Assembly: GCF_042660085.1 (NCBI RefSeq)
Contig: NZ_JBHSTI010000008.1
Coordinates: 630,001 to 662,000 of the forward strand
DNA length: 32,000 nt
Reading direction: 5' to 3'
Source of the DNA: Longivirga aurantiaca
Lineage (GTDB): Bacteria; Actinomycetota; Actinomycetes; S36-B12; CAIYMF01
Shown: in pieces, positions 6,323 to 18,437 of the stretch
How the letters are laid out: each line of letters starts with the position of its first letter
Numbering within the stretch: position 1 is the stretch's first letter
The notes under the pieces: model-generated
What the model saw: the letters and a program-made list of their open reading frames with translations, nothing else
What the model was told of the DNA's origin: nothing
Database searches by the model: none
Made by a program: the position numbers and the translations under genes

Positions 6323-8296
6323 TCACGTGCCGGTGATGATGCGCGGTGCGGTCATGGTGTCCTGGCCGTGCATGTAGTTGGCCGGTACGTAGACGCGGTA
6401 CTCCCACGTGCCGGGCTGCACGACGATCTTGGCCGTGATCGCGCCGGTGGTCTGGGCGGTGCCCTGCCAGAGGTTGGAGTAGCTGCCGGTCGTCCCGACC
6501 TTGCGGGCGATGACCCACACGGTCCGCTGGTTGCCCGGCGTCACCGAGATGCCGTCGAGGTAGGTCCAGCCCGCCGCGACCGTCGACGTGGTGGTGTCGA
6601 AGCCCGAGACGGTGGTCTTCGCCGAGACGGTGCGGACGGCGGAGCCCACCGGGCCGTACGTCTTCCACGCCGGGGCGTACACGCGCCACTCCCAGATGCC
6701 GACCAGGACGCTGCCGGTGAACGGGATGCTGCAGCCGACGTTGGTGGTCTGGGTGGTCACGGTGTACCAGCTCGTCGCACCCTGCAGGCGGCGCTGCAGG
6801 ACCGCGGGGCGACCCGACTGGCTCCCGCAGGTGACGGCGACGGTCGAGCTGAACGTGCCGCCGCTCGCGGCGGTGAGGGAGGTGGAGGCCCAGCCGCTGA
6901 TGCTCGACGGCGCGTACGGCGTCACGGCGGCGGCGAAGGACGCGGGGCCGTCGCCGAGCGCGTTGAACGGGACGACCTTGACGGTGGCGCTGGCGCCGTT
7001 GGTGGCGGTGACAGCCGCGCTCGTCGTGGTGACGATCTTCTTCTGGACGCCGTTGACGTACACGCGGTACGACGTCGCCCCCTCGCCGGCGGGCGCCGCC
7101 ACCCAGGTGGCGTTCACGGTGGCGTTGCCGGCCTTCGCGGTGAGGCCCGAGACCGCACCCGGGACCGCCTTGGCGGCGGCGGAGATGCTCGTGGGCAGCG
7201 AGTCGCCCTCGCTGTTGACCGCGACGACGCTGAACTTCTGGACGACGCCGTTCGTGAGCCCGGTGGCGGTGAACGAGGCGGCGTTGGCGGGGAGGTTCAA
7301 GGCGAGGCCCTTGTCCGACGTGACGCGGTAGCCGAGCACCGGAGCCCCGTTGGTGGACGCCGGCGGCGCCCAGGTCAGGAGCACCTTGCCGTTGTACGGC
7401 GTCGCCGCGAGGCTGCGCACGGGCGTCGTGATGTTGCGGACGGTCTGCGACCAGGTGCCGCTGACGGAGTAGCCGACCGCGGTGCCGCCGGGCGTCGCGA
7501 TGGAGAACGCACCGCTCGAGACCCCGGTCTTCGTCGGGAGCGCGAGGGTGCCGGCCGCGGTCGACCAGTCGGCGGTGTCGTCGCTGCCGTTGGTGAAGGA
7601 CGGCACGCAGGTGGGGAGGCCCGACAGGCAGATGTAGCCGCCGCCGAACACGTCGTTGTCGTCGTCCCACATCACGAACCGCAGAGGCCGGTTCTGCTGC
7701 GCCCCGGCGATCGAGTGCGTGCGCGCGGTGCTGGGCACGGAGTAGGTGCCGCCGGTGCTCCAGGCCCAGTAGGTGCTCGTGGCGCCGAGCTGCCGGTAGG
7801 CGCCCAGCTCGGAGGTGCTGACCTTGGAGCCCATCCAGTAGAAGTCGCCCGCACCGGTGGAGTCGGAGTCGTTCGTGAGCGACACCTTGTCGAACGTGAC
7901 CGTGAGGTCGCGTCGCGGCGTGCGCAGCGTGCCCTCCTCGGTGCGGACGTTGCCGAACGAGTCGGCCGCCTTCACGACGTAGCGGTACCAGGCGCCCTGC
8001 GAGAGCCCGGTCTGCATGTCGTAGCTGCGGGTCGAGGTGAGGGCAGATCCGGCGGCCGGTGCGAACGACTTCACCTTGGTGGCGCCGAAGTAGATGTCGG
8101 CCGACACGAGGGTCGGGCTGCTGGTGGACACGTCGAGGCGCAGGCCGTCGGGGTACGGAGTCGCCGTGATGGCGCTGATGCAGTCGGTCTGGCACGGCGT
8201 CGCGGCGGACGCCGACGGCGCGACGGCGAGCGTGCTGCCGAGGATCGCGGCGGCGGTGACGCCGGCGGCTGCGGCGCGGCGTGCGGTGCGGTTCAT
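6323..8296 (-). CDS. Large secreted protein with fibronectin type III repeats
   Basis: Signal peptide MNRTARRAAAAGVTAAAILGSTLAVAPSASAA, with an RR that may indicate Tat export. Two Fn3-like modules (LLTWAPPASTNGAPVLGYRVTS...VVAVNSEGDS and VNATWVAAPAGEGATSYRVYVNG...VVPFNALGDG). AGGAGA RBS 7 nt upstream of the ATG. Confidence 0.8.
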   Translation of the reverse strand: MNRTARRAAAAGVTAAAILGSTLAVAPSASAATPCQTDCISAITATPYPDGLRLDVSTSSPTLVSADIYFGATKVKSFAPAAGSALTSTRSYDMQTGLSQGAWYRYVVKAADSFGNVRTEEGTLRTPRRDLTVTFDKVSLTNDSDSTGAGDFYWMGSKVSTSELGAYRQLGATSTYWAWSTGGTYSVPSTARTHSIAGAQQNRPLRFVMWDDDNDVFGGGYICLSGLPTCVPSFTNGSDDTADWSTAAGTLALPTKTGVSSGAFSIATPGGTAVGYSVSGTWSQTVRNITTPVRSLAATPYNGKVLLTWAPPASTNGAPVLGYRVTSDKGLALNLPANAASFTATGLTNGVVQKFSVVAVNSEGDSLPTSISAAAKAVPGAVSGLTAKAGNATVNATWVAAPAGEGATSYRVYVNGVQKKIVTTTSAAVTATNGASATVKVVPFNALGDGPASFAAAVTPYAPSSISGWASTSLTAASGGTFSSTVAVTCGSQSGRPAVLQRRLQGATSWYTVTTQTTNVGCSIPFTGSVLVGIWEWRVYAPAWKTYGPVGSAVRTVSAKTTVSGFDTTTSTVAAGWTYLDGISVTPGNQRTVWVIARKVGTTGSYSNLWQGTAQTTGAITAKIVVQPGTWEYRVYVPANYMHGQDTMTAPRIITGT

Positions 8297-8345: not shown

Positions 8346-8402
8346 GTGCCTGCGGTGGGTCCCGCACCTGAGCAGCGACTACTCACCTTCGCTCCGGCGC
8401 TA
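8346..8402 (+). repeat. Degenerate junction-repeat copy upstream of the first HNH gene
   Basis: It begins GCTCGTGCCTGCGG (compare GCTCGTGCCTCCCACG at 13033) and ends TCCGGCGCTA (compare ACCGGCACTA). The match is weak. Confidence 0.25.
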
Positions 8403-8548: not shown

Positions 8549-10024
8549 ATGTCCCAGGCCACCTTCGTCGATCCGGCGGTGGAGTTCGCGCGCCTGGTCG
8601 CGGGTGCGCGGGGTCTGCTGGGCGAGGCGTCGGTGCTGGCCGGTTCCGGCGCTGTGTCTGAGGTGCAGCTGGCGGGTCTGCCGGAGCTGACGGCGGAGCT
8701 GTTCGCGGTCCGCGACGCCGCCCACGCCCTGGGCGTGGTCGCGGTGGACCGCCTGGACGCCTCGGGGGTGCTGGCGTCGGCGGGGTTCGGGTCGACGACG
8801 GCGTTCCTGACCCAGCGCACCGGCATGGCCCCGGGCAGGGCCGGCAGCGTCGTCTCGGGTGCGCGGACGCTGCGCTCGTATGCCGCGACGCGGGTCGCGC
8901 TGGTCGCGGGCCGGGTCACCCCGGACCTGGCGGCTGCCCTGGTGCGCGGCAGCGAGGCGGCGATCGCGGACAGGACCGCCGACGACCGGGTGCAGTGGCG
9001 GGCGTTCTGCGAGGACTACCTCCTCCCGATCGCGGAGCAGGGGTCGGTGGAGGAGGTCGCGGGCGCTGCCGCGGTGCTCAAGGAGATCCTGGACCCGGAG
9101 GCCGCGGCCCGGCGCAAGGAGGAGTCGATGGCGGGCCAGTTCCTCACCGTGACCCGGGTCGGGGACCAGTTCGTGATCAAGGGCGCCCTGACCCTGGAGG
9201 ACGGCGCCGCGCTCAAGGTGCTGCTGGACCGGATGCGCGACGCGAAGTTCCGCACGGGATCCCTGACCCCGGACGAGCAGCCCACCGGCGACGCCGCGGT
9301 CGACGAGCGGCGGCGCCGGATCGCCGCGGCGCACCAGGACGCCCTGTCGTTGAACCACCTCGTGCAGCTGTGGCTGGCCGGCGGCATGGTCGGCCGCGCC
9401 CACGGGGTCCGCCCGCACGTCACCATCGCGACCACGGTCGACGACCTCGACGCCGGGTTCCCCGGCGAGATGACCGTCCCCGGGATGTCGTCCCCGGTGC
9501 TGGTCAACGCCGAGACGGTGAAGCGGATGCTGTGCGACGCGTCGGTGACCGAGATCGGCGTCATCGGGTCCGTCCCCGACCGGCACGCGCACCACCACGG
9601 CGGCGTCCCCTGCCACGGCGCTGCCCACCGGGGGCGACACGGCCACGTCCACGGCGTCGGCGGCTGCGAGCTGCACCCCGGCTCGGCGCGGTTGCTGCGC
9701 CGCCGCCATCACGTCTGGGACGAGGGCCGCCGCTACCGCACCGTCCCACCCCGCCTGCGTCGGGCGCTGGACCTCCGCGACCAGCACTGCGCGTTCCCGG
9801 GCTGCCGGATCGCGGTCGGGTGGTGCGAGGCCCACCACATCCTCGAGTGGGAGTACGGCGGCGCCACCGACCTCGACAACCTCACGTTGTTGTGCGCGAA
9901 GCATCACCACGCGGTGCACGAGGGCGGCTGGACCATCGTGAAGAACCCCGGCATCGACCCGGGATGCCCGACCTGGCTCGCCTTCGACCCACCCGACCCC
10001 GTCCCCGTCCGAACCCGGCCCTGA
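8549..10024 (+). CDS. DUF222 + HNH endonuclease domain protein (REP13E12-type)
   Basis: Start chosen at ATG 8549 (MSQATFVDPAVEFARL) rather than the ORF-track start at 8420. C-terminal HNH region RRALDLRDQHCAFPGCRIAVGWCEAHHILEWEYGGATDLDNLTLLCAKHHHAVHEGGW. The long helical N-terminal region is typical of actinobacterial DUF222 proteins. Confidence 0.85.
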   Translation: MSQATFVDPAVEFARLVAGARGLLGEASVLAGSGAVSEVQLAGLPELTAELFAVRDAAHALGVVAVDRLDASGVLASAGFGSTTAFLTQRTGMAPGRAGSVVSGARTLRSYAATRVALVAGRVTPDLAAALVRGSEAAIADRTADDRVQWRAFCEDYLLPIAEQGSVEEVAGAAAVLKEILDPEAAARRKEESMAGQFLTVTRVGDQFVIKGALTLEDGAALKVLLDRMRDAKFRTGSLTPDEQPTGDAAVDERRRRIAAAHQDALSLNHLVQLWLAGGMVGRAHGVRPHVTIATTVDDLDAGFPGEMTVPGMSSPVLVNAETVKRMLCDASVTEIGVIGSVPDRHAHHHGGVPCHGAAHRGRHGHVHGVGGCELHPGSARLLRRRHHVWDEGRRYRTVPPRLRRALDLRDQHCAFPGCRIAVGWCEAHHILEWEYGGATDLDNLTLLCAKHHHAVHEGGWTIVKNPGIDPGCPTWLAFDPPDPVPVRTRP

Positions 10025-10150
10025 AGAAGGGCAGGCCGCACTCGGGACCGATCAGCACCGCAGGCAGACCGCACCACCCGACAGGGCGCGGTCCCCGTGG
10101 CATGTCCGGACACAGATCACACCGCGAGAAGTAACCGGCAATCGGCATCG
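10025..10150 (+). repeat. Junction repeat R0 (long form) directly after the HNH stop codon
   Basis: The left part GAAGAAGGGCAGGCCGCACTCGGG resembles GAAGTGCCCGGTGGTGCACTCGGG at 13772. The right end GAGAAGTAACCGGCAATCGGCATCG (10126-10150) matches GAGAAGGAACCGGCACTAGACATCG at 12341. Confidence 0.4.
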
Positions 10151-10154
10151 CGCT

Positions 10155-10466
10155 GTGGGGCAGGATCAGACCGTGCCGACTCGCGCTGATCGACCCGACG
10201 TACCCACCCTGTGCCTTGTCTGCGGGTTCGACTACGACGGGTTCGATGACGTTCTTCCGTGGGGTCCGGATGGCGACAGCCCGACCTACAACTTCTGCCC
10301 GTGCTGCGGCGTGGAGTTCGGTTACGGAGACTTCGCGATCGAGGGTGCGAAGCAGTGGCGAGCCAAGTGGCTGGCAGGCGGCGTCGAATGGTTCGACCCC
10401 AACGAGCGCCCCGTCGATTGGGACGTGTCGGTCCAACTCTCCCGCCTGCCCGAGCGCGTGAGATAG
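10155..10466 (+). CDS. Small cysteine-rich (zinc-ribbon-like) protein
   Basis: 103 aa with a GTG start (alternative in-frame GTG at 10173). Two Cys pairs, CLVCG...CPCCG, and no recognisable family. A junction-repeat left-end-like string lies at its 5' end. Confidence 0.55.
   Translation: MGQDQTVPTRADRPDVPTLCLVCGFDYDGFDDVLPWGPDGDSPTYNFCPCCGVEFGYGDFAIEGAKQWRAKWLAGGVEWFDPNERPVDWDVSVQLSRLPERVR
10173..10199 (+). repeat. Short junction-repeat-like copy overlapping the 5' end of the Zn-ribbon ORF
   Basis: GTGCCGACTCGCGCTGATCGACCCGAC. Compare GTGCCGATCGCGCTCG at 10474 and GTGCCGTTCGCGCTCGTATTTGATCGG at 16481. Confidence 0.3.
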
Positions 10467-10473
10467 CGCAGAC

Positions 10474-10521
10474 GTGCCGATCGCGCTCGCTTCGTCCTGA
10501 GAAGCTCGGCATTGGGCATCG
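10474..10521 (+). repeat. Junction repeat R1
   Basis: GTGCCGATCGCGCTCGCTTCGTCCTGAGAAGCTCGGCATTGGGCATCG. The ends GTGCCGA and TCGGCAT are inverted repeats. It starts 8 nt after the stop at 10466. Confidence 0.55.
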
Positions 10522-10563
10522 TCGACTTGCCCGAGGACGAGCACCCGGTGCGACGCTGGAGGG

Positions 10564-11004
10564 GTGACAACAGCGTCCCGGTGGGGCCTGACGCCTCGCC
10601 AGAGCGTCGAGCGGGAGGCCGCTCGGCGTGGGAGCGATGCGGTGATCGAGGGCTGTCGGGCCTTGGTCCGGGGCGAGGACGGGGATGCGGCGCTGGTTCT
10701 CGTTCTCGGTGGCCCTCCCGCCCGCACGTTCCTCGACGGTCAGCCCCACGTGGATGACTACTGGCTCAGGGTGTGGGGTCTGCGCGGGTTGCTGTGGGTG
10801 TGGTCGCCCGTCGCGATCCCCGAGCTTCGGGTCGCTCTGACTGATCCGGCGTGGAGAGTCCGGGAGATGGCCTTGAAGGTCGCCGCACGCAACCGGGTGG
10901 AGGACGTGGTCGAGGTGGCCGCGCCGCTGCAGAGCGATCCCGTGGCGAGGGTGAGACAGCAGTCGCACCGATACCTGATGCAGGTTGTTGCAGACGGCAC
11001 CTGA
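10564..11004 (+). CDS. HEAT-repeat-like protein
   Basis: 146 aa. LTDPAWRVREMALKVAARNRVEDVVEVAAPLQSDPVARVRQQSHRYL has the PBS-lyase/HEAT repeat pattern. The GTG at 10564 sits too close to GGAGG, so the in-frame GTG at 10642 is an alternative start. Confidence 0.55.
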   Translation: MTTASRWGLTPRQSVEREAARRGSDAVIEGCRALVRGEDGDAALVLVLGGPPARTFLDGQPHVDDYWLRVWGLRGLLWVWSPVAIPELRVALTDPAWRVREMALKVAARNRVEDVVEVAAPLQSDPVARVRQQSHRYLMQVVADGT

Positions 11005-11014
11005 CCGCACCGAA

Positions 11015-11055
11015 GCGGCCGTTCTGACTCCAGTTCTCGGTTCGGTACCGGCAGG
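11015..11055 (+). repeat. Junction repeat R2
   Basis: GCGGCCGTTCTGACTCCAGTTCTCGGTTCGGTACCGGCAGG. It shares GAAG + CCGTTCTGACTC with R3, R4 and R7. The right end is GTACCGGCA. It lies between the stop at 11004 and the ATG at 11065. Confidence 0.55.
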
Positions 11056-11064
11056 CTGTCCCGC

Positions 11065-11526
11065 ATGTTGATCGAGATCCGCGAAGCCACAGCCGAAGAT
11101 CTCCCTGCCCTCGCGCGGCTTCGCTGGGAGTGCCACACGGAGCGCCAACCGGCTGACGAGCATGACTTCGACGCCTACCGTCTCGGCTTTGCTCAATGGT
11201 GCTCGGCGCGGCAGGGCAGATGCCGCGCAGTCGTGGCCGTAGACGGTTCCCACGTCGTGGGCATGGGATTCCTTGTCCTGGTCGACCGCGTCCCCAGCCC
11301 CGGCTCGCTGGATCGCCATCATGGCGACATTCAGTCGATGTACGTAACACCCGCACACAGGAACCACGGGGTTGGATCGAAGATCGTTCGACGACTACTC
11401 GACCTGGCACGCGACGCAGGATGCGAGCGGATCGAGGTCTACTCAGGAAGCCGCGCGGTCACCTTCTACGAACGATCAGGGTTTGAGCACGTCGACCGAC
11501 TCCTGAATCGGGTCCTCGGGCAGTGA
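11065..11526 (+). CDS. GNAT family N-acetyltransferase
   Basis: 153 aa with an ATG start. Acetyl-CoA binding motif A region MYVTPAHRNHGVGSKIVRRLLDLARDAG, and C-terminal FYERSGF. Confidence 0.8.
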   Translation: MLIEIREATAEDLPALARLRWECHTERQPADEHDFDAYRLGFAQWCSARQGRCRAVVAVDGSHVVGMGFLVLVDRVPSPGSLDRHHGDIQSMYVTPAHRNHGVGSKIVRRLLDLARDAGCERIEVYSGSRAVTFYERSGFEHVDRLLNRVLGQ

Positions 11527-11543
11527 TGACGCTCCCGACCTCT

Positions 11544-11586
11544 GTGCCGTTCTGACTCGGATCTCGGAGCAAGGATCCGACACTAG
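11544..11586 (+). repeat. Junction repeat R3
   Basis: GTGCCGTTCTGACTCGGATCTCGGAGCAAGGATCCGACACTAG. The first 16 nt are identical to R7. There is an internal 6-bp stem CGGATC/GATCCG. Confidence 0.6.
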
Positions 11587-11702
11587 GTGGCGGTGGCGAG
11601 GCCAGGCTGTCGCGCCGCCGGACCACTCCGTTGGCCAGGCCACCGGGCGAGGTTGCGTCTAGCGTGGAGTTGCACGGGAACCTCCACCGAGGGGAGGCCG
11701 CC

Positions 11703-12212
11703 ATGACTGAGATTCCGGAGCCGTCCAGCACGAGGCGGTGGGGCCGTGGGGGCCTGGTCATCGCAGTGCTCGGTGCTCTGGCCCTCGTCGGATCCGCGCT
11801 CCTGGGCTTCCTCCTCATGCAGGGTCCACGTGATCTGTCGCCGGTGGCGTACGGGGAGCGGCTGACCGTCACCACGGAGCGGAGCTCCTCGGTCGCGGTG
11901 TACACGCCCACGGGCCTGGAGGCACCGCCCGCGTGTCAGGTGGCCACGTCAGCCGGTGCGGACGTCGAACTCGGCCCGGTCGAGCGCTACTCCCAGGCGA
12001 GCGGTCTGGAGACCACCTACTCGTTCGCCACCGCTGGGGGAGTTCCCTACCAAGTGTCCTGCGGGACGGTCGGTGAGACCGGCGAGTTCGCCGCCGCAGA
12101 GACCCGTCGCGTGTCAGTGCCACTGATCGTCGCCGTGGGCTCGATGGGGCTGGTGCTCCTCCTCGGAGGTCTCGTCCTCGCGCGTCTCAGCGGCCGCTCG
12201 ATAGTCGGCTAG
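11703..12212 (+). CDS. Two-TM membrane-anchored protein of unknown function
   Basis: ATG at 11703 follows a GAGGGGAGG RBS (the ORF track starts earlier, at 11631). Hydrophobic helices GLVIAVLGALALVGSALLGFLLM and PLIVAVGSMGLVLLLGGLVLA flank a ~100 aa domain containing 2 Cys. Confidence 0.6.
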   Translation: MTEIPEPSSTRRWGRGGLVIAVLGALALVGSALLGFLLMQGPRDLSPVAYGERLTVTTERSSSVAVYTPTGLEAPPACQVATSAGADVELGPVERYSQASGLETTYSFATAGGVPYQVSCGTVGETGEFAAAETRRVSVPLIVAVGSMGLVLLLGGLVLARLSGRSIVG

Positions 12213-12220
12213 GGCTTCCA

Positions 12221-12259
12221 GCCGAAGATCCCTCGAGCGACCGGATGGCGAACCGAGCC
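12221..12259 (+). repeat. Degenerate junction-repeat copy (R3b) abutting R4
   Basis: GCCGAAGATCCCTCGAGCGACCGGATGGCGAACCGAGCC. The right part resembles CTCGAAGAGCGAACCGGAGCC of R7. Confidence 0.25.
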
Positions 12260-12262
12260 GAA

Positions 12263-12358
12263 GTGCCGTTCTGACAGTGCGGGCTCGATTCCCGTCACCC
12301 GCTCCGCTGTGATTCGTTGTGACACAACGGCAGACAGGCGGAGAAGGAACCGGCACTA
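12263..12358 (+). repeat. Junction repeat R4 (long form)
   Basis: The left end GTGCCGTTCTGAC and the right end GGAACCGGCACTA can pair as 9 bp with one bulged G. It contains the 53-bp core shared with R5 and the palindrome GTTGTGACACAAC (12316-12328). Confidence 0.65.
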
Positions 12359-12462
12359 GACATCGCGTCCCACCGGGGGCGGGGCCCCGTTCCAACCCCG
12401 GCGCGACACGCGCTCTTCCGAGCGGCGGTGGCGTGCGCCGCCGTCCGCGCACCGGCGACGGG

Positions 12463-12999
12463 TCAGCAGAGGTCGACGAGGGCGAGCAGCGTGCGCCAGT
12501 TGCGCGCGGTGCCCGTGGTGGCCAGTCGCTTGAGGATGGCGCCGTGCTGCAGCCGGCTGTCGTGCATCGTCTCGCCGTACGCGATGACGATCTCGAGCTC
12601 GCGCGCGGCGACGAGGTCGGCGCCCCAGTCGGTGCTCAGCAGCGTGGCGAGCGCCGTCGCGTCGGGGGCGGTGTCGAGGTGCAGCACGTGCACCGACGCC
12701 GGCCGCTCGGCCGCCTGCTCGGCGAAGGGCGACCACTCCGCCACCGCGCGCAGCTGCCTCGGCGTGCGCACCAGCACCGGGGTGTCGATGCCGAACGACG
12801 CGCGCAGCACGTCGCCGACGCCGCTCGCCACCTTCCCCGGCGTCCGGACGGGCGAGGAGAGGATGACGTTGCCGCTCTGCATGTACGTGCGGACGTCGGC
12901 GTAGCCCGCCTCGGCCAGCGCGGTCCGCAGCGCCGGCATGCTCACCTTGTTATGGCTGCCGAGGTTGACCGCACGCAGCAGGGCCACCCAGGTCGGCAT
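12463..12999 (-). CDS. DUF1697 family protein
   Basis: 178 aa. The N-terminus MPTWVALLRAVNLGSHNKVSMPALRTALAEAGYADVRTYMQSGNV matches the characteristic DUF1697 start as I recall it. Confidence 0.75.
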   Translation of the reverse strand: MPTWVALLRAVNLGSHNKVSMPALRTALAEAGYADVRTYMQSGNVILSSPVRTPGKVASGVGDVLRASFGIDTPVLVRTPRQLRAVAEWSPFAEQAAERPASVHVLHLDTAPDATALATLLSTDWGADLVAARELEIVIAYGETMHDSRLQHGAILKRLATTGTARNWRTLLALVDLC

Positions 13000-13036
13000 G
13001 CCCTGACCCTAGCCTCGGAGGCGACCACCGGCGCTC

Positions 13037-13103
13037 GTGCCTCCCACGATGCTGTGATTCGTTGTGACACAACGGCAGACAGGCGAAGAGAGAACCGGCA
13101 CTA
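13037..13103 (+). repeat. Junction repeat R5
   Basis: GTGCCTCCCACGAT followed by the 53-bp core (13051-13103), which matches 12306-12358 at 50 of 53 positions. It includes GTTGTGACACAAC (13061-13073) and the right end GAACCGGCACTA. Confidence 0.65.
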
Positions 13104-13115
13104 TCGCTCGTGTGG

Positions 13116-13691
13116 TCAGGTGCTGGAACGGCCCACACCGATGCACCAGATCAGCAGCAGCATCGACCCGATGTACGCCAGGACCTGAGGCGCGACGAGG
13201 CCGGCGCCCGCCGAACCCCAGTCGTCGATGCCGGAGAGGATGCCCGGCAGCACCGCGAGGCCCACCACGAGCAGTACGCCGGCGATGACGCCAAGCCAGC
13301 GCAGCCACACCGGCCAGCTCGTGCTGCCGAGAATCGTCAGCGCGAGAATGAGGAACCACACGCCGAGGACGCCCCACCCCAGGGCGGACCACAGTCCGGC
13401 GAGATACCAGTCGGTGCGTCCGGTCAGGACGAGGACCGAGCCGATGACGATCAGAATCGCGCCCAGGACAGCGGCGGTAAGTGCGAGCCAGCGCGGCACG
13501 ATGCCGTCGGGCAGCAGGTCGCGCGCCGCGAAGGCCAGCAGCATCGCCAGGACGCCGGTGGCCGCTCCGAGCACGTCGTTGACCGGTCCGAGGAAGCCGA
13601 GACCCACGGACATCAAGACGAGGGCGGCGAGAGCGACTATGCCAACGAGGGCGGTCCACAGCGCCAGCGACCTCACCGAGTCCGTGACCAT
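13116..13691 (-). CDS. Polytopic membrane protein of unknown function
   Basis: Start chosen at the ATG at 13689-13691 (MVTDSVRSLALWTALVGIVALAALVLM). About 6 hydrophobic segments. The upstream part of ORF 13116..13934 is Arg/Ser-rich and not protein-like. Confidence 0.6.
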   Translation of the reverse strand: MVTDSVRSLALWTALVGIVALAALVLMSVGLGFLGPVNDVLGAATGVLAMLLAFAARDLLPDGIVPRWLALTAAVLGAILIVIGSVLVLTGRTDWYLAGLWSALGWGVLGVWFLILALTILGSTSWPVWLRWLGVIAGVLLVVGLAVLPGILSGIDDWGSAGAGLVAPQVLAYIGSMLLLIWCIGVGRSST

Positions 13692-13768
13692 GCGCACCTC
13701 GTACCAAACGATGCTCGCTCTCCGCGATGATCCCGCGCACAACATGGCAGGGCAATGGTCGGCGGAGC

Positions 13769-13871
13769 GCAGAAGTGCCCGGTGGTGCACTCGGGTCTGG
13801 GCGTTGGGGCTGGTTCGGTCGTAGCGTCCTGATGTCGCCGGGCTGACTCGCGAAGTGCCTGCCGTTGCTGG
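13769..13871 (+). repeat. Junction-repeat left-end copies (R6) with no matching right end before the IS110 fragment
   Basis: GCAGAAGTGCCCGGTGGTGCACTCGGG (13769-13797) shares GCAGAAGTGCC with 15853-15863. A second left-end copy is CGAAGTGCCTGCCGTTGCTGG (13851-13871). Confidence 0.35.
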
Positions 13872-13912
13872 CCTGCTAACGAACTGTCGCTCGGCGGCGT
13901 CGACCGCGGCAT

Positions 13913-14939
13913 GACTCAACAGAGGCTTGGCCACCCCGCACCGGGACTGTCTGCCGCGTTCCTTTCCCTCGAGTGGTTGTAGCGGGCAGATGCAGGTGAT
14001 CGGAGTCGATCCTCACAAGGGATCCCACACGGCAGTGGCGATCGGTGGCGACGAGAGCGTGATCGCCTCAGTGCGTATCGCGGCGAGCCGGCGCCAGGTC
14101 GAACGACTGCTGGTGTTCGCGGCCGCGTGGCCGGAACGGGTCTGGGCGGTCGAGGGCGCGCAGGGCGTGGGCCGGATGCTCGCCCAGCAACTGGTGGCTC
14201 GGGGCGAGCGAGTGGTGGATGTGCCGCCCTCGCTCTCGACCCGGGTCAGGGTGCTGTCGGGCCGGTCTGGTCGCAAGACCGACGCGCACGACGCCCGCGC
14301 TGTCGCGGTCGCTGCCCTACGCCAACCCAACCACACGATCGTGGCTGCTGAGGACTTCAGCAGGAGCCTGCGGTTGTTGTCCGACCGCCGCGCGCAGCTG
14401 ACCGCCGCCCGCACCCAGGCCGTCACGCGACTGCACGGACTGCTCGCCGAACTCGTGGAAGGCGGTGCACCCCAGTCGCTCTCAGCCGAGCAGGCAGCGG
14501 CGATCCTGCGCCGGATCCGACCCGTGAGCGAGGTCGACGTGATCCGCAAGGAGCTCGCACGCGACCTGCTCGGAGACCTGCGGCGCCTGGACGCCAAGCT
14601 CGCCGCTAACGCGACCAGGATCGCCGAGGCCGTTCATGACAGTGGCACTACCCTGACCGAGATCCAGGGCATCGGGCCGATCACCGCAGCCCGGATCATC
14701 GGTCACAGCGGCAACCCGGCCCGCTTCCCGACCCGCGGGCACTACGCCTCCTACGCCGGCACCGCACCCATCGAGGCATCCTCAGGAACGGTCGAACGCC
14801 ACCGCCTGTCCCGGCGCGGGAACCGGCAGCTGAACTCGGCACTGCACGGCGTCGCGATCACCCAGATGCGCCACCCCGGCCCGGGTAAGGACTACTACGA
14901 ACGCAAGATCGTCGCGTCGCTTGACACACAGAGGCTTCG
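13913..14939 (+). mobile_element. IS110-family insertion sequence remnant (boundaries uncertain)
   Basis: Bracketed by the imperfect 17-18 bp direct repeat GACTCAACAGAGGCTTGG (13913-13930) and GACACACAGAGGCTTCG (14923-14939). It contains the truncated transposase ORF. Confidence 0.45.
13990..14913 (+). pseudogene. IS110-family DEDD transposase, 3'-truncated (~308 codons, no stop codon of its own)
   Basis: MQVIGVDPHKGSHTAVAIG, VWAVEGAQG, KTDAHDARAVA and LTEIQGIGPITAARIIG...IEASSG...RRGNRQLNSALH are IS110 N- and C-terminal domain signatures. Similarity stops after DYYERKI, about 40-60 codons short. The frame then runs on into the next gene. Confidence 0.75.
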
Positions 14940-15066
14940 TTTGCGCACGTTGCGGCCTGGCGGCTGCCGGCGAGCCTTGCCGCCTAGAGCCGGGTGCACG
15001 AATGCTCTGCCGACCCGCTCCAGACTGCGGGCGACACTGCGCTGGCGCCGCCGTATCGTGGCCGCG

Positions 15067-15732
15067 GTGTGCTTCTCGCCCCAGGCGGATCTGGTCGGCG
15101 GCGCTGTTCTCGTCGTGCTCGGCGTCGATGCGCTGCGCCACGTGCACGAGCGGCGTGACCACGTCGCGCTCGCGGCGCTGCCGCTACTCCTCGCCGCGCA
15201 CCAGGTGATAGAGGCATTCGCGTGGTGGGGCCTGCAGGGAGTGGTGACCCCTGAGGTCGGGACGGCAGCTGTGTGGGCCTACCTGTTCATCGCGTTCGTC
15301 GTGCTACCCGTCTACGTGCCCGTCTCGATCCTCACGATGGAGCCGCCAGGCTGGCGACGCCAGGTCATCTGGGCATTCGTCGCCATGGGCGCCGTCGTCG
15401 CGGCCGGCCTGCTCGCCGGCATGCTGCGCGGTCCGGTGACGGCCGCAGTCGAGGGCTGGCACCTCGCTTACGGCACGGGCACGACCGCCGGGGGTGCGCT
15501 CGCAGTCGTCTACGTCGTCGTCACTTGCGGATCGGTGCTGTTCTCGGGGCGGCCCTACCTCATGGCGTTCGGGCTGCTGAACCTGCTGGCCGTCGCGTTC
15601 CTTGCCTGGTTTGAACTCTCCGGCTTCGCGTCGCTGTGGTGCGCGTGGGCGGCGCTCACCGCGGGCGGCATCGCCGTATACATGCGGATCGATCATCGCC
15701 CCCGCGTCCGGACGTCATACGCCGTGCCGTAG
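15067..15732 (+). CDS. Polytopic membrane protein (DUF6629-like)
   Basis: GTG at 15067 gives MCFSPQADLVGGAVLVVLGVDALRHV, followed by about 6 hydrophobic helices. It is in frame with the upstream IS110 remnant, so the ORF track merges them as 13927..15732. Confidence 0.6.
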   Translation: MCFSPQADLVGGAVLVVLGVDALRHVHERRDHVALAALPLLLAAHQVIEAFAWWGLQGVVTPEVGTAAVWAYLFIAFVVLPVYVPVSILTMEPPGWRRQVIWAFVAMGAVVAAGLLAGMLRGPVTAAVEGWHLAYGTGTTAGGALAVVYVVVTCGSVLFSGRPYLMAFGLLNLLAVAFLAWFELSGFASLWCAWAALTAGGIAVYMRIDHRPRVRTSYAVP

Positions 15733-15836
15733 CCGCCCGCGCCGGTCCGCGACGTTACCGACTGGCGACCCCGCACGCCGCGCGCTCTGGTCCAGTCCGT
15801 TGGCGACCGGCTGCGCAGCGGAGGTGATTGAGGGGG

Positions 15837-15855
15837 GCGTGCCTCGGGGGCACGC
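15837..15855 (+). repeat. Perfect 7-bp hairpin GCGTGCC-TCGGG-GGCACGC immediately before R7
   Basis: A minimal GTGCC...GGCAC inverted repeat about 105 nt after the stop at 15732. It may be a terminator. Confidence 0.4.
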
Positions 15856-15859
15856 AGAA

Positions 15860-15903
15860 GTGCCGTTCTGACTCGCTTCTCGAAGAGCGAACCGGAGCCA
15901 TCG
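15860..15903 (+). repeat. Junction repeat R7
   Basis: GTGCCGTTCTGACTCGCTTCTCGAAGAGCGAACCGGAGCCATCG. The preceding GAAG gives the exact 16-mer GAAGTGCCGTTCTGAC, also present at 12260. Inner stem TCGCT/AGCGA; outer stem CCG-TTC/GAA-C-CGG with a bulge. Confidence 0.6.
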
Positions 15904-16070
15904 CTTGCCCGTAACCGGTCAACGCCGTCTGTCTCACGATGTGAAGCCACGAGCGACTTGGACAAGGGCGGCGCCAGCTGACCGGATGCGCCTTAGCCTC
16001 ACCTTCGAGGTCCTCTGCCTCGAGCGAGTCAATCCTCGCCGACCCACCACATGATCAGCATGGAGGAGCC

Positions 16071-16436
16071 ATGGCCCAGAAGGCCGTCGTAAGTCTCACC
16101 ACGGGACTCGAAGACATCGAGAAGGTGACAGTGGCGTTTCTCGTCGCGGTCGGCGCTGCCGAGACGGGGCGCGACACCCTCGTGTTCCTCACGCAGGAGG
16201 CCGTGCGCCTTGCCCTTCCTGGGGTGGCGACCGGCATCGGCTGCGACGGCTGCCCTTCCCTTGAGTCGCTCGTGGAGCGCTACCACGCTGCTGGCGGTCG
16301 CTACTTCGTCTGTCCGATCTGCGTCGACTCGCGCAAGATCGACGCCGCGACACTGATCGACGGCGCGGAGCTCAACGGGACCATCCCCATGTGGAACTGG
16401 ATCGGCGACGACGGGGCCACGACTTTCAGCTACTGA
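16071..16436 (+). CDS. DsrE-family (DsrE/DsrF-like) small protein
   Basis: 121 aa. ATG follows a GGAGG RBS. MAQKAVVSLTTGLEDIEKVTVAFLVAVGAAETGRDTLVFLTQEAV and the later CPICV fit the DsrE-like fold pattern as I recall it. Confidence 0.55.
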   Translation: MAQKAVVSLTTGLEDIEKVTVAFLVAVGAAETGRDTLVFLTQEAVRLALPGVATGIGCDGCPSLESLVERYHAAGGRYFVCPICVDSRKIDAATLIDGAELNGTIPMWNWIGDDGATTFSY

Positions 16437-16480
16437 CTGCTCCGCGGTGCCGAGAGCGTGCCGCATAGCGGCGCGGAGAT

Positions 16481-16514
16481 GTGCCGTTCGCGCTCGTATT
16501 TGATCGGGCAGGGC
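16481..16514 (+). repeat. Junction repeat R8 (short form)
   Basis: GTGCCGTTCGCGCTCGTATTTGATCGGGCAGGGC. The left end matches R1 (GTGCCG-A/T-TCGCGCTCG). The right end GATCGGGCAGG resembles GTACCGGCAGG of R2. Confidence 0.45.
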
Positions 16515-16577
16515 TGGCCCGCGCCGAGCCGCCGCACGATGCCTTGATCGGCTAGGTCGGCCGGCCCCGTGTTCTGT

Positions 16578-18263
16578 CTAGAACGGGGGCTGGTCGATCT
16601 CGACGGCGAGGGCGTGCACGGTGTGCGGGCGGGGGAGGTTGGGGCGTGCGGGGATGCGGACCGTCTGTCCGAGGGCGGTGTTGAAGGTGGCGGTGCCGTC
16701 GGGTCTGGAGTCGGTGATGTCCAGGAGGCCGGCGGTCTTGCGTTGGTGGCATTCGGTGCAGAGGGCGCCGCAGTTGCCGGCGGTGGTGGGGCCGTGGGGT
16801 GCTTCTTCGGCGTGGTCGATCTGCAGGTAGCGCTGGGCTTTGCGGGTGCAGCCGGGTGATCGGCAGCCGCCGTCGCGGGCGATGCAGTGCCGGCGCAGGG
16901 CGGGTGGGACGCGGACGGTGGTGCCGTGGTCCTTGACCCAGCCGTCGACGGGGTCGGTGACCACGCGGCGCAGGAACGTGGCCCAGGCGGCGTGGTCGCG
17001 GGCGATGCCGGCGGGGGCGGGTTGGCCGTTGATGAGGGCGACCCGGTCCTGCAGCCCCTGCAGGGTGTCGGCATCGATGACGACGTCGGTGGTGATGATC
17101 GTGGCGGCGGCGCGGTCGAACGTCACCTCCCCGTCGGGGGTGACGGTGCCGAGGATGCGGGCCATGAGGGCGTCGGCGCGGGCGGCGTCGGCGCGCAGGT
17201 CGGCGTCGGACCACACCGGCTCTGTGGCGCGGTCGCTCTCGGCTGCTGCGGCGGCGGCGGCGGTGTCGTTGTCGCGGTGGCGCTGGTCGGCGATGGCGTC
17301 GCCGTCGCGGCGCAGGGTGTCGTAGATGGCGTCGATGACGGGGGTGTCGTGGGTGAGGCCGAGGAAGGACATGCCGTCCTTGCCGCGGCGGATGTAGAGG
17401 CCGCGGTCGTCGTGGGCCTTCTGGTGGCGGCGGACGGCGTCGGGGTCGAGCTCGGTGATCAGGGCCTGCAGGTGGGTGCGGAAGTCCGCGACGACCATCG
17501 TGCGGGCTGCGGGCAGGGCCAGGCGGCCGATCACCTCGAGGGTGTCGGGGTCGGTGATGTTCAGGCACTCGCTGATCAACGTCCGGCAATGCCAGTCGGA
17601 CACCTCACCCTCGAGGAGGGCGTGGCCGAAGGGCGCGAGCTCCCCGAACAGGGACCGCGCCGTGGAGATGTGGTGGGCGGCGGCGTCGATGGACATCCCG
17701 ACGGCGATCGCGACCTCGTGGGCGATCTGCCGGTCGTTCTCCGACGACACCGCCCCTCGCGGGTCGGGGATCCCGGCGATGGCGGCGAGGGCTGCGTAGC
17801 GGCGGCCGTGGGCGCGGTCGACGTCGCGATCGAGGCGGGTGAGGTCCTCGAGCAGGTCGGGGGCGGCGACGGGGGAGTTCAGGTCCTGAGCGTCGACCAG
17901 GCCCAGGGCCAGGGCCCACATGCGGGAGGAGTCGGTGCCGGGCACGAACCGGGCCTCCACTTGCTCGCGCAGCGCGGCGGCGCGCGCGGCTCGCCGCTGG
18001 GCGAGCCGCACTGCGCGCTCGTCCGGCTCACGCACCGGGGCAGGCTCAGGCTCGCCGACAGTCCGGGCCGGGCGGCGGTGGCCGGGCACGTCCACGTCCA
18101 GCTGCAGCGACCCGAGCACCGGCGACCACGCGGCGGGCCGCGCGTAGTCGGCCTCCAGGCCCTCGACGACGAACCGCTCCAGGCCCTGCACCAGCCCGGC
18201 CAGCAGCGCGTCCACCGCGGACACGACGGTCTCCGAGGTGCTCGAGCCGCGGCTGCTGGACAT
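16578..18263 (-). CDS. DUF222 + HNH endonuclease domain protein (REP13E12-type), second copy
   Basis: 561 aa with an ATG start. C-terminal VPPALRRHCIARDGGCRSPGCTRKAQRYLQIDHAEEAPHGPTTAGNCGALCTECHQRKTAG is an HNH/Zn-finger region. Long helical N-terminal region. Only distantly similar to the 8549..10024 protein. Confidence 0.85.
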   Translation of the reverse strand: MSSSRGSSTSETVVSAVDALLAGLVQGLERFVVEGLEADYARPAAWSPVLGSLQLDVDVPGHRRPARTVGEPEPAPVREPDERAVRLAQRRAARAAALREQVEARFVPGTDSSRMWALALGLVDAQDLNSPVAAPDLLEDLTRLDRDVDRAHGRRYAALAAIAGIPDPRGAVSSENDRQIAHEVAIAVGMSIDAAAHHISTARSLFGELAPFGHALLEGEVSDWHCRTLISECLNITDPDTLEVIGRLALPAARTMVVADFRTHLQALITELDPDAVRRHQKAHDDRGLYIRRGKDGMSFLGLTHDTPVIDAIYDTLRRDGDAIADQRHRDNDTAAAAAAAESDRATEPVWSDADLRADAARADALMARILGTVTPDGEVTFDRAAATIITTDVVIDADTLQGLQDRVALINGQPAPAGIARDHAAWATFLRRVVTDPVDGWVKDHGTTVRVPPALRRHCIARDGGCRSPGCTRKAQRYLQIDHAEEAPHGPTTAGNCGALCTECHQRKTAGLLDITDSRPDGTATFNTALGQTVRIPARPNLPRPHTVHALAVEIDQPPF

Positions 18264-18293: not shown

Positions 18294-18437
18294 TGACTCA
18301 TACCCTGGAGCGAGGAATCGCCGGAAAGTGTTCAGCCGCAAGCGAACACAGCCGGATCCGAGCGAGGCTCGGAAGCACATGACGTGTGATTGGGGAGCTG
18401 CCGGGTGGACGAGCACGAGCGAGCCGCGGACGACGGA

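Follow-up and report, generated by a model that had tools for sequence, protein, structure and literature searches.

The window analysed here is a 32-kb stretch of the Longivirga aurantiaca genome (contig NZ_JBHSTI010000008.1, positions 630,001 to 662,000 of the forward strand; coordinates below are counted from its first letter). Between two genes encoding DUF222-HNH proteins (HNH1 and HNH2), it carries an island of short genes separated by one family of junction repeats, and this array and its repeats are the subject of the present work. The guanine-cytosine (GC) content is 72-76% in the window flanks, which are high-GC actinobacterial DNA, and 64-70% at 10.0-16.5 kb. Pfam searches of the open reading frames (ORFs) of the island recognised the two DUF222-HNH genes, HEAT, GNAT, DUF1697, an in-frame fusion of an IS110 remnant with DUF6629, and DsrE, in agreement with the sequence-only reading of the locus as unrelated short genes and an IS110 remnant between two HNH genes. 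GC at third codon positions (GC3) is 0.71-0.89 in the cassette genes and 0.94-0.98 in the host genes; the exception is DUF1697 (0.98). Outside the island the window carries housekeeping genes: a fatty-acid desaturase, a fused S15-peptidase/ABC-ATPase ORF, DAO, fn3, a PolA-like gene, 2-oxoglutarate dehydrogenase, an ABC transporter, an ion channel, a deacetylase and an S58 peptidase. The DAO protein is 100% identical to a protein assigned by NCBI to Longivirga aurantiaca (family Sporichthyaceae).

A profile hidden Markov model (HMM), trained mainly on sites from other genomes, was run over the window and gave six matches with E<0.2, all of them on the + strand and inside 10466-16500; no match in the remaining ~25 kb was better than E=1.2. 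Every exact match listed earlier was present: GTGCCGTTCTGAC at 11544, 12263 and 15860 (with 2 mismatches at 11016; all + strand), GAACCGGCACTA at 12347 and 13092, and GTGCCG[AT]TCGCGCTCG at 10474 and 16481. The claim of non-random repeats in a single orientation therefore holds, while the 'weaker copies' proposed at 8346-8402, 18328-18349 and 16569-16578 were not detected by the profile HMM. Each site consists of two core-type boxes located ~32 bp apart (~45 bp in total). The consensus of box 1, obtained from 72 distinct core sites, is (C)GCGC[CA]GAn-GTGCCG-[TA]T[CA]kskCTCGC[CT], and that of box 2 is (G)A[AT]-CCGGCA-nT-AGGCATCGC. Contrary to the earlier description, the middle of the sites is not freely variable: box 2 ends 32-33 nt past GTGCCG in six of the eight window sites, and in 27 of 33 short sites elsewhere. 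The 12263 copy is the only long site of the window, with 87 nt from GTGCCG to the end of box 2. The two ends had been described as inverted repeats; this holds in part (GTGCCG-TTCG versus CGAA-C-CGGCAC), and in addition each end is a direct paralogue of the other (GAA-GTGCCG-TTCGCGCTCGC and GAA-CCGGCA-nTAGGCATCGC, with the shared layout GAA / 6-mer / nTnnnCnTCGC). By analogy, each box can be described as a pair of short arms around an invariant 6-bp centre, resembling dif/lox-type sites, and this arm / 6-bp centre / arm layout has an inner CGAA...TTCG symmetry. Written with its arms, box 1 is (GCGC[AC]GAn)-GTGCCG-([TA]TCkCGCTCGC) and box 2 is (GAA)-CCGGCA-(nTAGGCATCGC). Two-box sites ~32 bp apart and in one orientation, starting at a module-end junction (described below), are s2-s4, s6 (right half), s7 and s8, plus the relic at 10126-10151. 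The features of the locus are as follows:

8549-10024, + strand: DUF222-HNH gene 1 (HNH1), assigned by Pfam; flanks the array.
10126-10151, + strand: relic of an integrase-proximal (attI-like) junction, GAGAAGTAA-CCGGCA-ATCGGCATCGC; box 2 at 10135-10140.
10141-10479, + strand: cassette 1, Zn-ribbon-like ORF 10173-10466; GC3 0.80; replaced in contig L001.
10466-10522, + strand: junction site s2; box 1 GTGCCG at 10474-10479, box 2 TCGGCA at 10506-10511; profile E=2e-6.
10480-11021, + strand: cassette 2, HEAT-repeat ORF ending at 11004; Pfam HEAT_2, under the gathering score.
11003-11064, + strand: junction site s3; box 1 variant CGGCCG at 11016-11021, box 2 CCGGCA at 11048-11053; spacing 32 nt.
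11022-11549, + strand: cassette 3, GNAT ORF 11065-11526; Pfam Acetyltransf_1, E=5e-19; GC3 0.71.
11530-11593, + strand: junction site s4; box 1 at 11544-11549, box 2 variant CCGACA at 11577-11582; spacing 33 nt.
11550-12268, + strand: cassette 4, ORF of a protein with two transmembrane segments, ending at 12212.
12249-12366, + strand: long junction site s5; box 1 at 12263-12268; 53-nt segment 12306-12358 ending in box 2 CCGGCA (12350-12355).
12463-12999, - strand: DUF1697 gene; Pfam E=1e-34; between two direct copies of the 53-nt element.
13051-13115, + strand: second copy of the 53-nt module-end element, 94% identical; box 2 at 13095-13100.
13116-13691, - strand: gene of a polytopic membrane protein; cassette end GCGCAGAAGTGCC at 13767-13779.
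13780-14937, + strand: IS110-family remnant inside the 6-bp centre of a junction site; Pfam DEDD_Tnp_IS110 and Transposase_20.
14938-15865, + strand: DUF6629 cassette, ORF ending at 15732; starts with the right half-site TTTGCGCACG; box 2 variant CCGGCG at 14967-14972.
15846-15908, + strand: junction site s7; box 1 at 15860-15865, box 2 variant CCGGAG at 15892-15897; best profile match of the window, E=1.6e-8.
15866-16452, + strand: DsrE-like cassette, ORF 16071-16436.
16447-16522, + strand: extra box 1 (16447-16452), mini-unit (16453-16486) and terminal site s8.
Terminal site s8, + strand: box 1 at 16481-16486, box 2 variant CGGGCA at 16505-16510.
16578-18263, - strand: DUF222-HNH gene 2 (HNH2), assigned by Pfam; flanks the array.

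The window array comprises eight or nine cassettes. Over the site-bearing loci, the distance from one site to the next is 567 bp at the median (range 34-1969). Most of the cassette proteins tested matched no Pfam family. A count of the orientation of the longest ORF within cassettes was dropped, as it is unreliable in high-GC DNA. The mini-unit at 16453-16486 is a gene-less segment of 32-34 nt (ATAGCGTGCCGC-nnnn-GCGGCGCGCAGAT-GTGCCG) between two box 1 centres, with a GC-rich hairpin inside; its presence or absence in L052 and L119 is independent of the neighbouring cassettes, like that of an empty mini-cassette. The 16-mer GAAGTGCCGTTCTGAC was also found in viral contigs (L006-L021; 16 matches), where it mostly corresponds to the final codons (...EVPF*) of genes that, from their context, presumably resemble SSB (single-stranded-DNA-binding protein). 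These viral matches were rejected as true sites and considered a stop-codon-proximal coding coincidence, by which naive repeat scans would be contaminated.

Comparison with other contigs revealed where the arrays differ. The metagenomic contig L001, found by exact-protein look-up of the window GNAT, is 99.7% identical to window positions 10066-10140 and 10466-12335, and the Zn-ribbon gene between them is swapped for an unrelated gene of 180 aa. The left switch lies directly after GAAGTAACCGGCA, behind its CCGGCA, the junction relic being the left breakpoint; the right switch lies in site s2, between GCGCAGA(A/C)GTGCCG and ATCGCGCTCG. Contig L003, from the same sample as L001, is 98.6% identical to the window from 14938 on and carries a PALP gene and other DNA upstream; the switch lies between GCGCAGATGTGCCG and TTTGCGCACG, with GTGCCG as the centre. 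The DsrE cassette recurs in two loci of metagenome-assembled genomes (MAGs), L119 and L052 (protein 94% identical, DNA 81-86% identical), with different neighbours and with homology that stops at the sites. Upstream of DsrE, L119 and L052 are alike only from box 2 onward, and this one comparison suggests that box 2 is also usable as a crossover point. The sequence-only reading had proposed to test for whole-unit differences with breakpoints in the repeats; such differences were found in the alignments with L001 and L003, and on these alignments the cassettes are best described as discrete units bounded at sites. Two other candidate comparisons were rejected: a one-cassette difference between L149 and L146 (BLAST found them 99.9% identical) and a cassette common to L081 and L111, which had no crisp boundary.

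The L003 comparison also locates the IS110 insertion. L003 lacks IS110 and has the uninterrupted site GCGCAGATGTGCCGTTTGCGCACG; as its homology starts at 14938 with this site intact, the IS110 remnant of the window sits inside the 6-bp centre of the site. The IS110 ORF runs in frame into the DUF6629 ORF, and the flanks are at 13767-13779 and 14938-14950. The 5' non-coding part of the element carries GCGAAGTGCCTGCCGTTGC (13849-13867), which repeats the target flanks and may be a bridge-RNA guide programmed for these sites. A second IS110 fragment is present in the array of L145 (7389-7781). One group of IS110-family elements, IS1111-attC, inserts into integron attC sites, and IS110/IS1111 elements target repeated sites such as attC and repetitive extragenic palindromic (REP) sequences. 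The window remnant resembles them in its location within a site centre; it differs in being a secondary invader of the array and not the mechanism that builds it.

Next, we analysed where else the sites occur. A genome scan with a degenerate site pattern of 14 fixed bases gave 119 stretches among the matches listed, of which approximately 9 were true sites, chance or coding matches being the majority; among the matches listed, the homologous sites were all from Actinomycetota MAGs, including Ca. Nanopelagicales. In locus L101, five sites lie within 8 kb and a 303-aa tyrosine recombinase is located among them, beside a DUF7711 gene; the recombinase of L081 is 84% identical to that of L101. Homologue searches and context look-ups revealed the recombinase in more than 85 further loci, and the site-flanked integrases are 74-100% identical to one another. 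Where the recombinase is at least 74% identical, its gene is in nearly all loci part of a bounded module of ~1.05 kb (recombinase alone) or ~1.69 kb (with DUF7711), delimited by inverted repeats of at least 20 bp that end in CCGGCA, one of which ends ~90 bp upstream of the start codon. The sequences outside the module ends are variable and usually resemble cassette starts (TTCGCGCTCGC, TTCTGACTCGC as in L001, [GC]TATCGCTCGC or ATAGGCATCGC immediately outside the end). The module of L101 is 99.8% identical to that of L156 over 1704 bp, but the two loci share neither flank, and their similarity stops at the outer edge of the terminal 6-mers. Box 1 sites near modules have a uniform orientation, each of the 51 non-redundant copies facing away from its module (51/51, p ~1e-15), and arrays are present on both sides of the module in five loci. 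The sequence-only reading had noted the absence of a tyrosine recombinase. This is correct for the window, where a recombinase gene is absent from all 32 kb (Pfam searches, and zero matches in tblastn with the linked integrase), but it does not extend to other Actinomycetota, in which the same sites flank this Xer-like integrase module.

The linked recombinase is distant from integron integrases. It scored 71.5 bits on TIGR02249 (integron integrase; cut-off 265) and 29 on PRK15417 (cut-off 435), and 118-121 bits on the XerC/XerD equivalog models (cut-offs 330-335). Its closest solved relatives are XerD and XerA, XerD being the best in the PDB, and IntI4 aligns only to residues 219-293 (the last ~75). 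The spacing between R156 and Y280 is 124 aa. XerD has the same spacing, and IntI1 has ~166 aa because of its extra I2 segment; the spacing observed here leaves no room for an IntI-specific insertion. DUF7711, of unknown function, is a candidate accessory factor: it lies inside the inverted-repeat-bounded module in 31 loci (e.g. L101 4421-5110 and L146 10923-11576) and is absent from the short form. In L146, a 162-aa cassette and its site are duplicated in inverted orientation (96.5%) on both module arms (9000-9571 and 11947-12526); this platform adjoins argS and a tRNA gene (the latter recognised by eye), and a HipA/HipB pair is located nearby. In the literature covered by our full-text searches, we found no description of the system or of DUF7711.

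The window retains relics of module ends. Positions 10133-10151 (AACCGGCAATCGGCATCGC) match the junction next to the L081 integrase module at every position (19/19), and they closely match the same junction in at least seven other loci, among them L101, L160, L162-L164, L166 and L192. The right end reported earlier at 10131 is consequently a real junction but of another type, integrase-proximal (10126-10151), and the statement that the locus has no attI must be revised, since an attI-like relic of a module end is kept. The end of s5 (GGAGAAGGAACCGGCA) matches integrase-module ends in L081, L168 and L211, and the second 53-nt element matches the module-end junctions of L145, L162, L168, L169 and L179. 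All of the window sites point rightward, away from the presumed former position of a module. As no recombinase gene is left and only module-end relics remain, the window is, by analogy with a CALIN (cluster of attC sites lacking integron-integrases), an orphan array with one module-end relic at its start and two further relics. The two 53-nt copies (12306-12358 and 13051-13103; 94% identical, ending in GAACCGGCACTA) flank DUF1697, the sole gene of the array with host-like GC3. This pair may have been left behind by a recombinase module that has since disappeared, or may mark an event in which a host gene was captured.

The sites had also been proposed to fold as bulged hairpins. The arms can indeed pair, with one bulged base, but covariation did not support the pairing (79% paired cells versus 80% in column shuffles, 27 sites), and RNAalifold found no consensus structure for the sites. 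Folding of single sites as DNA gave a mean z of -1.16, and the inner ~27 nt gave z -0.89 compared to -0.18 for random 27-mers of the same loci (p=0.004). The sites have a modest excess of self-complementarity, and with palindromy of this order both a double-stranded two-box site and a folded substrate are possible.

Taking these results together, it is likely that Actinomycetota have an integron-like cassette system for which the junction repeats serve as recombination sites, and that the window carries an orphan array of it. The proposal, made from the window itself, of a site-bounded cassette array with the formal organisation of an integron is borne out by the sites and by the differences between strains. 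That it is a different, non-integron shuffling system agrees with the lack of attC cores (no RYYYAAC/GTTRRRY pair at 35-130 nt spacing on either strand of the window), the lack of an integrase in the 32 kb and the whole-unit strain differences. In its complete form, the system would consist of the Xer-like recombinase, often accompanied by DUF7711, in a module whose inverted terminal repeats end in box 2, with cassettes of ~0.25-2 kb strung outward from both module ends and all sites pointing away. The linked recombinase would catalyse strand exchange within or beside the invariant 6-mers, on double-stranded DNA or on a folded single strand. Circular cassettes would be inserted at the module ends, and excised or reshuffled between box 1 sites; one module-end insertion followed by one box 1 x box 1 deletion would yield the first-cassette difference seen between L001 and the window. 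In the window, the module would have been lost, leaving three module-end relics, IS110 would have landed in one site, and any further change of the array would now require homologous recombination or a recombinase provided in trans.

Several points weigh against this interpretation. A recombinase is missing from the window, and just 30 of the 67 integrase loci with usable flanks have a strong box 1 site; many of these contigs are very short. The crossover is not placeable within the invariant 6-mers. The site-bounded differences could in principle result from homologous recombination using the repeats as short homology, and the integrase module could itself be a separate mobile element for which the sites are a target, as they are for IS110, and not the builder of the arrays.

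The alternative that fares best, although improbable, is that the sites are dif-like targets of the housekeeping XerC/XerD, like the pdif sites of Acinetobacter plasmids, the linked Xer-like gene being incidental. The dif-like pdif sites have an 11-6-11 layout; the arm / 6-bp centre / arm layout with its CGAA...TTCG symmetry would suit such targets, as would the relationship of the linked recombinase to XerD and XerA. This explanation is at odds with the dedicated recombinase inside inverted repeats of the same box, the strict orientation rule and the low scores of the linked protein on the XerC/XerD equivalog models. The pdif modules use the host XerCD, have sites that alternate in orientation, and lack a dedicated recombinase module or ordered array. 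The system described here shares with those of Acinetobacter plasmids the discrete modules bounded by Xer-type sites, but its sites are direct and not alternating, and it has a dedicated recombinase module and an ordered outward array.

Slightly less probable still is the alternative raised in the sequence-only reading, that the repeats are a selfish element similar to REP sequences or miniature inverted-repeat transposable elements that colonised one island, strain differences arising by homologous recombination between copies. The copies are short, imperfectly palindromic and intergenic, with the modest excess of hairpin potential at single sites described above, and one long copy (99 bp) has its 53-nt segment duplicated nearby. 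A selfish repeat does not account for the single orientation throughout the window and relative to the integrase module elsewhere, for the conservation of the site together with a specific recombinase across distinct lineages, or for breakpoints located exactly at the 6-mers. Moreover, within the window the copies are confined to the island: the ~25 kb of housekeeping DNA around it contain none, and neither do the syntenic loci L235 and L236.

It is very unlikely that the motif is a regulatory or terminator element (an operator or RNA structure) of acquired DNA with no role in recombination. In four cases box 1 follows the stop codon of the preceding gene by 8-18 nt, and box 2 precedes the next gene, positions that would fit such a role, and the fixed 32-33 nt spacing suggests protein binding. 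However, no intrinsic-terminator-like or sigma-70-like signals were found in the island, Rfam gave no relevant match to the window, and this explanation leaves the breakpoints at sites, the linkage to a recombinase and the IS110 insertion at a site centre without a cause.

The two DUF222-HNH endonucleases that flank the array were considered as drivers of cassette exchange, an explanation of very low probability. The genes are convergent and bracket the variable locus, and the contigs of relatives in metagenomes break inside both of them, which suggests that HNH genes are multi-copy. HNH1 and HNH2 share only 39% identity over 67 aa, both have host-like GC3, and no HNH homologue was found near sites in other loci; the association of HNH genes with the repeats that had been suggested is not supported. 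L235, from a related species (89% nucleotide identity in the housekeeping region), is syntenic from the GNAT gene (Acetyltransf_3; ~28.9 kb) through the PolA-like operon; the synteny includes the HNH2 orthologue (13359-14960) and stops at its stop codon, and no sites or cassettes were found in the 6.8 kb past it. The HNH2 orthologue is also kept at this position in L236. An HNH1-like DUF222 N-terminus follows DAO in relatives L240-L246 (L240 11612-11701), read by eye at contig ends, and HNH1 is probably backbone, outside the cassette system. With one orthologue kept in a relative that has no array and an HNH1-like start after DAO in others, the HNH genes appear to be backbone neighbours of the variable locus and not parts of the system. 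The fn3-domain gene (6323-8296, between DAO and HNH1) is missing in ~85%-identical relatives, where 80 bp of its 3' part are left (L240 11399-11478); given this loss, the left edge of the variable region may be at ~6270 instead of 10025.

That the array is the remnant of a classical integron, a CALIN of attC sites acted on by IntI, is scarcely credible: only its formal organisation as cassettes with no integrase favours it, against the lack of attC core pairs on both window strands, the linked recombinase that falls far below the integron-integrase cut-off and aligns to IntI4 over its last ~75 residues only, and the arrays on both sides of the recombinase.

The likeness to integrons is one of organisation. 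Both have a tyrosine recombinase beside arrays of short cassettes, which mostly hold one gene each and have unrelated or unknown functions. In both, structured sites whose ends are conserved separate the cassettes, and insertion takes place beside the recombinase gene, which for the present system we infer. Arrays can also stand without a recombinase, and IS110-family elements insert into the sites; as the site cluster of the window is not attC, its likeness to a CALIN is by analogy only. The differences lie in the recombinase, which here is Xer-like and not IntI, and in the sites, which lack RYYYAAC/GTTRRRY, are constant in length (~45 bp), contain two boxes that are direct paralogues, lie mostly upstream and not downstream of their gene, and show no covariation evidence for a folded substrate. 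In addition, the recombinase lies in an inverted-repeat-bounded module with outward arrays at both ends, compared to one attI and a single Pc-read array in integrons. A further parallel is with integrative mobile elements exploiting Xer recombination (IMEX), such as CTX phage, which recombine as a folded single-stranded hairpin: the imperfect palindrome described here could mimic a core site in a similar manner, but its folding lacks covariation support and there is no phage context.

Integrons are the textbook device of gene capture and shuffling. On balance, we lean towards the view that a counterpart of the integron evolved independently in Actinomycetota. In it, a Xer-like recombinase, accompanied or not by DUF7711, would lie in an inverted-repeat-bounded module whose two ends both serve as insertion sites, and bidirectional arrays of promoter-proximal cassettes would be built via two-box sites with invariant 6-bp centres. 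It would differ from IntI/attC in enzyme, site and architecture, and would be widespread in freshwater and soil lineages. IntegronFinder 2.0 found no complete integron in Actinobacteria, where integrons have been reported as essentially absent for reasons described as unclear (PMC9024848). If the view proposed here is true, a platform with a different recombinase and different sites would help to explain this gap, and would constitute a second, independent example of the evolution of cassette systems. It would also mean that abundant environmental Actinomycetota hold a large reservoir of uncharacterised cassettes, and would offer a new, compact (~45 bp) site/recombinase pair for engineering high-GC Gram-positive bacteria. 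Finally, it would make it testable whether cassette systems require a folded-single-strand mechanism or whether an ordinary double-stranded two-box site suffices.

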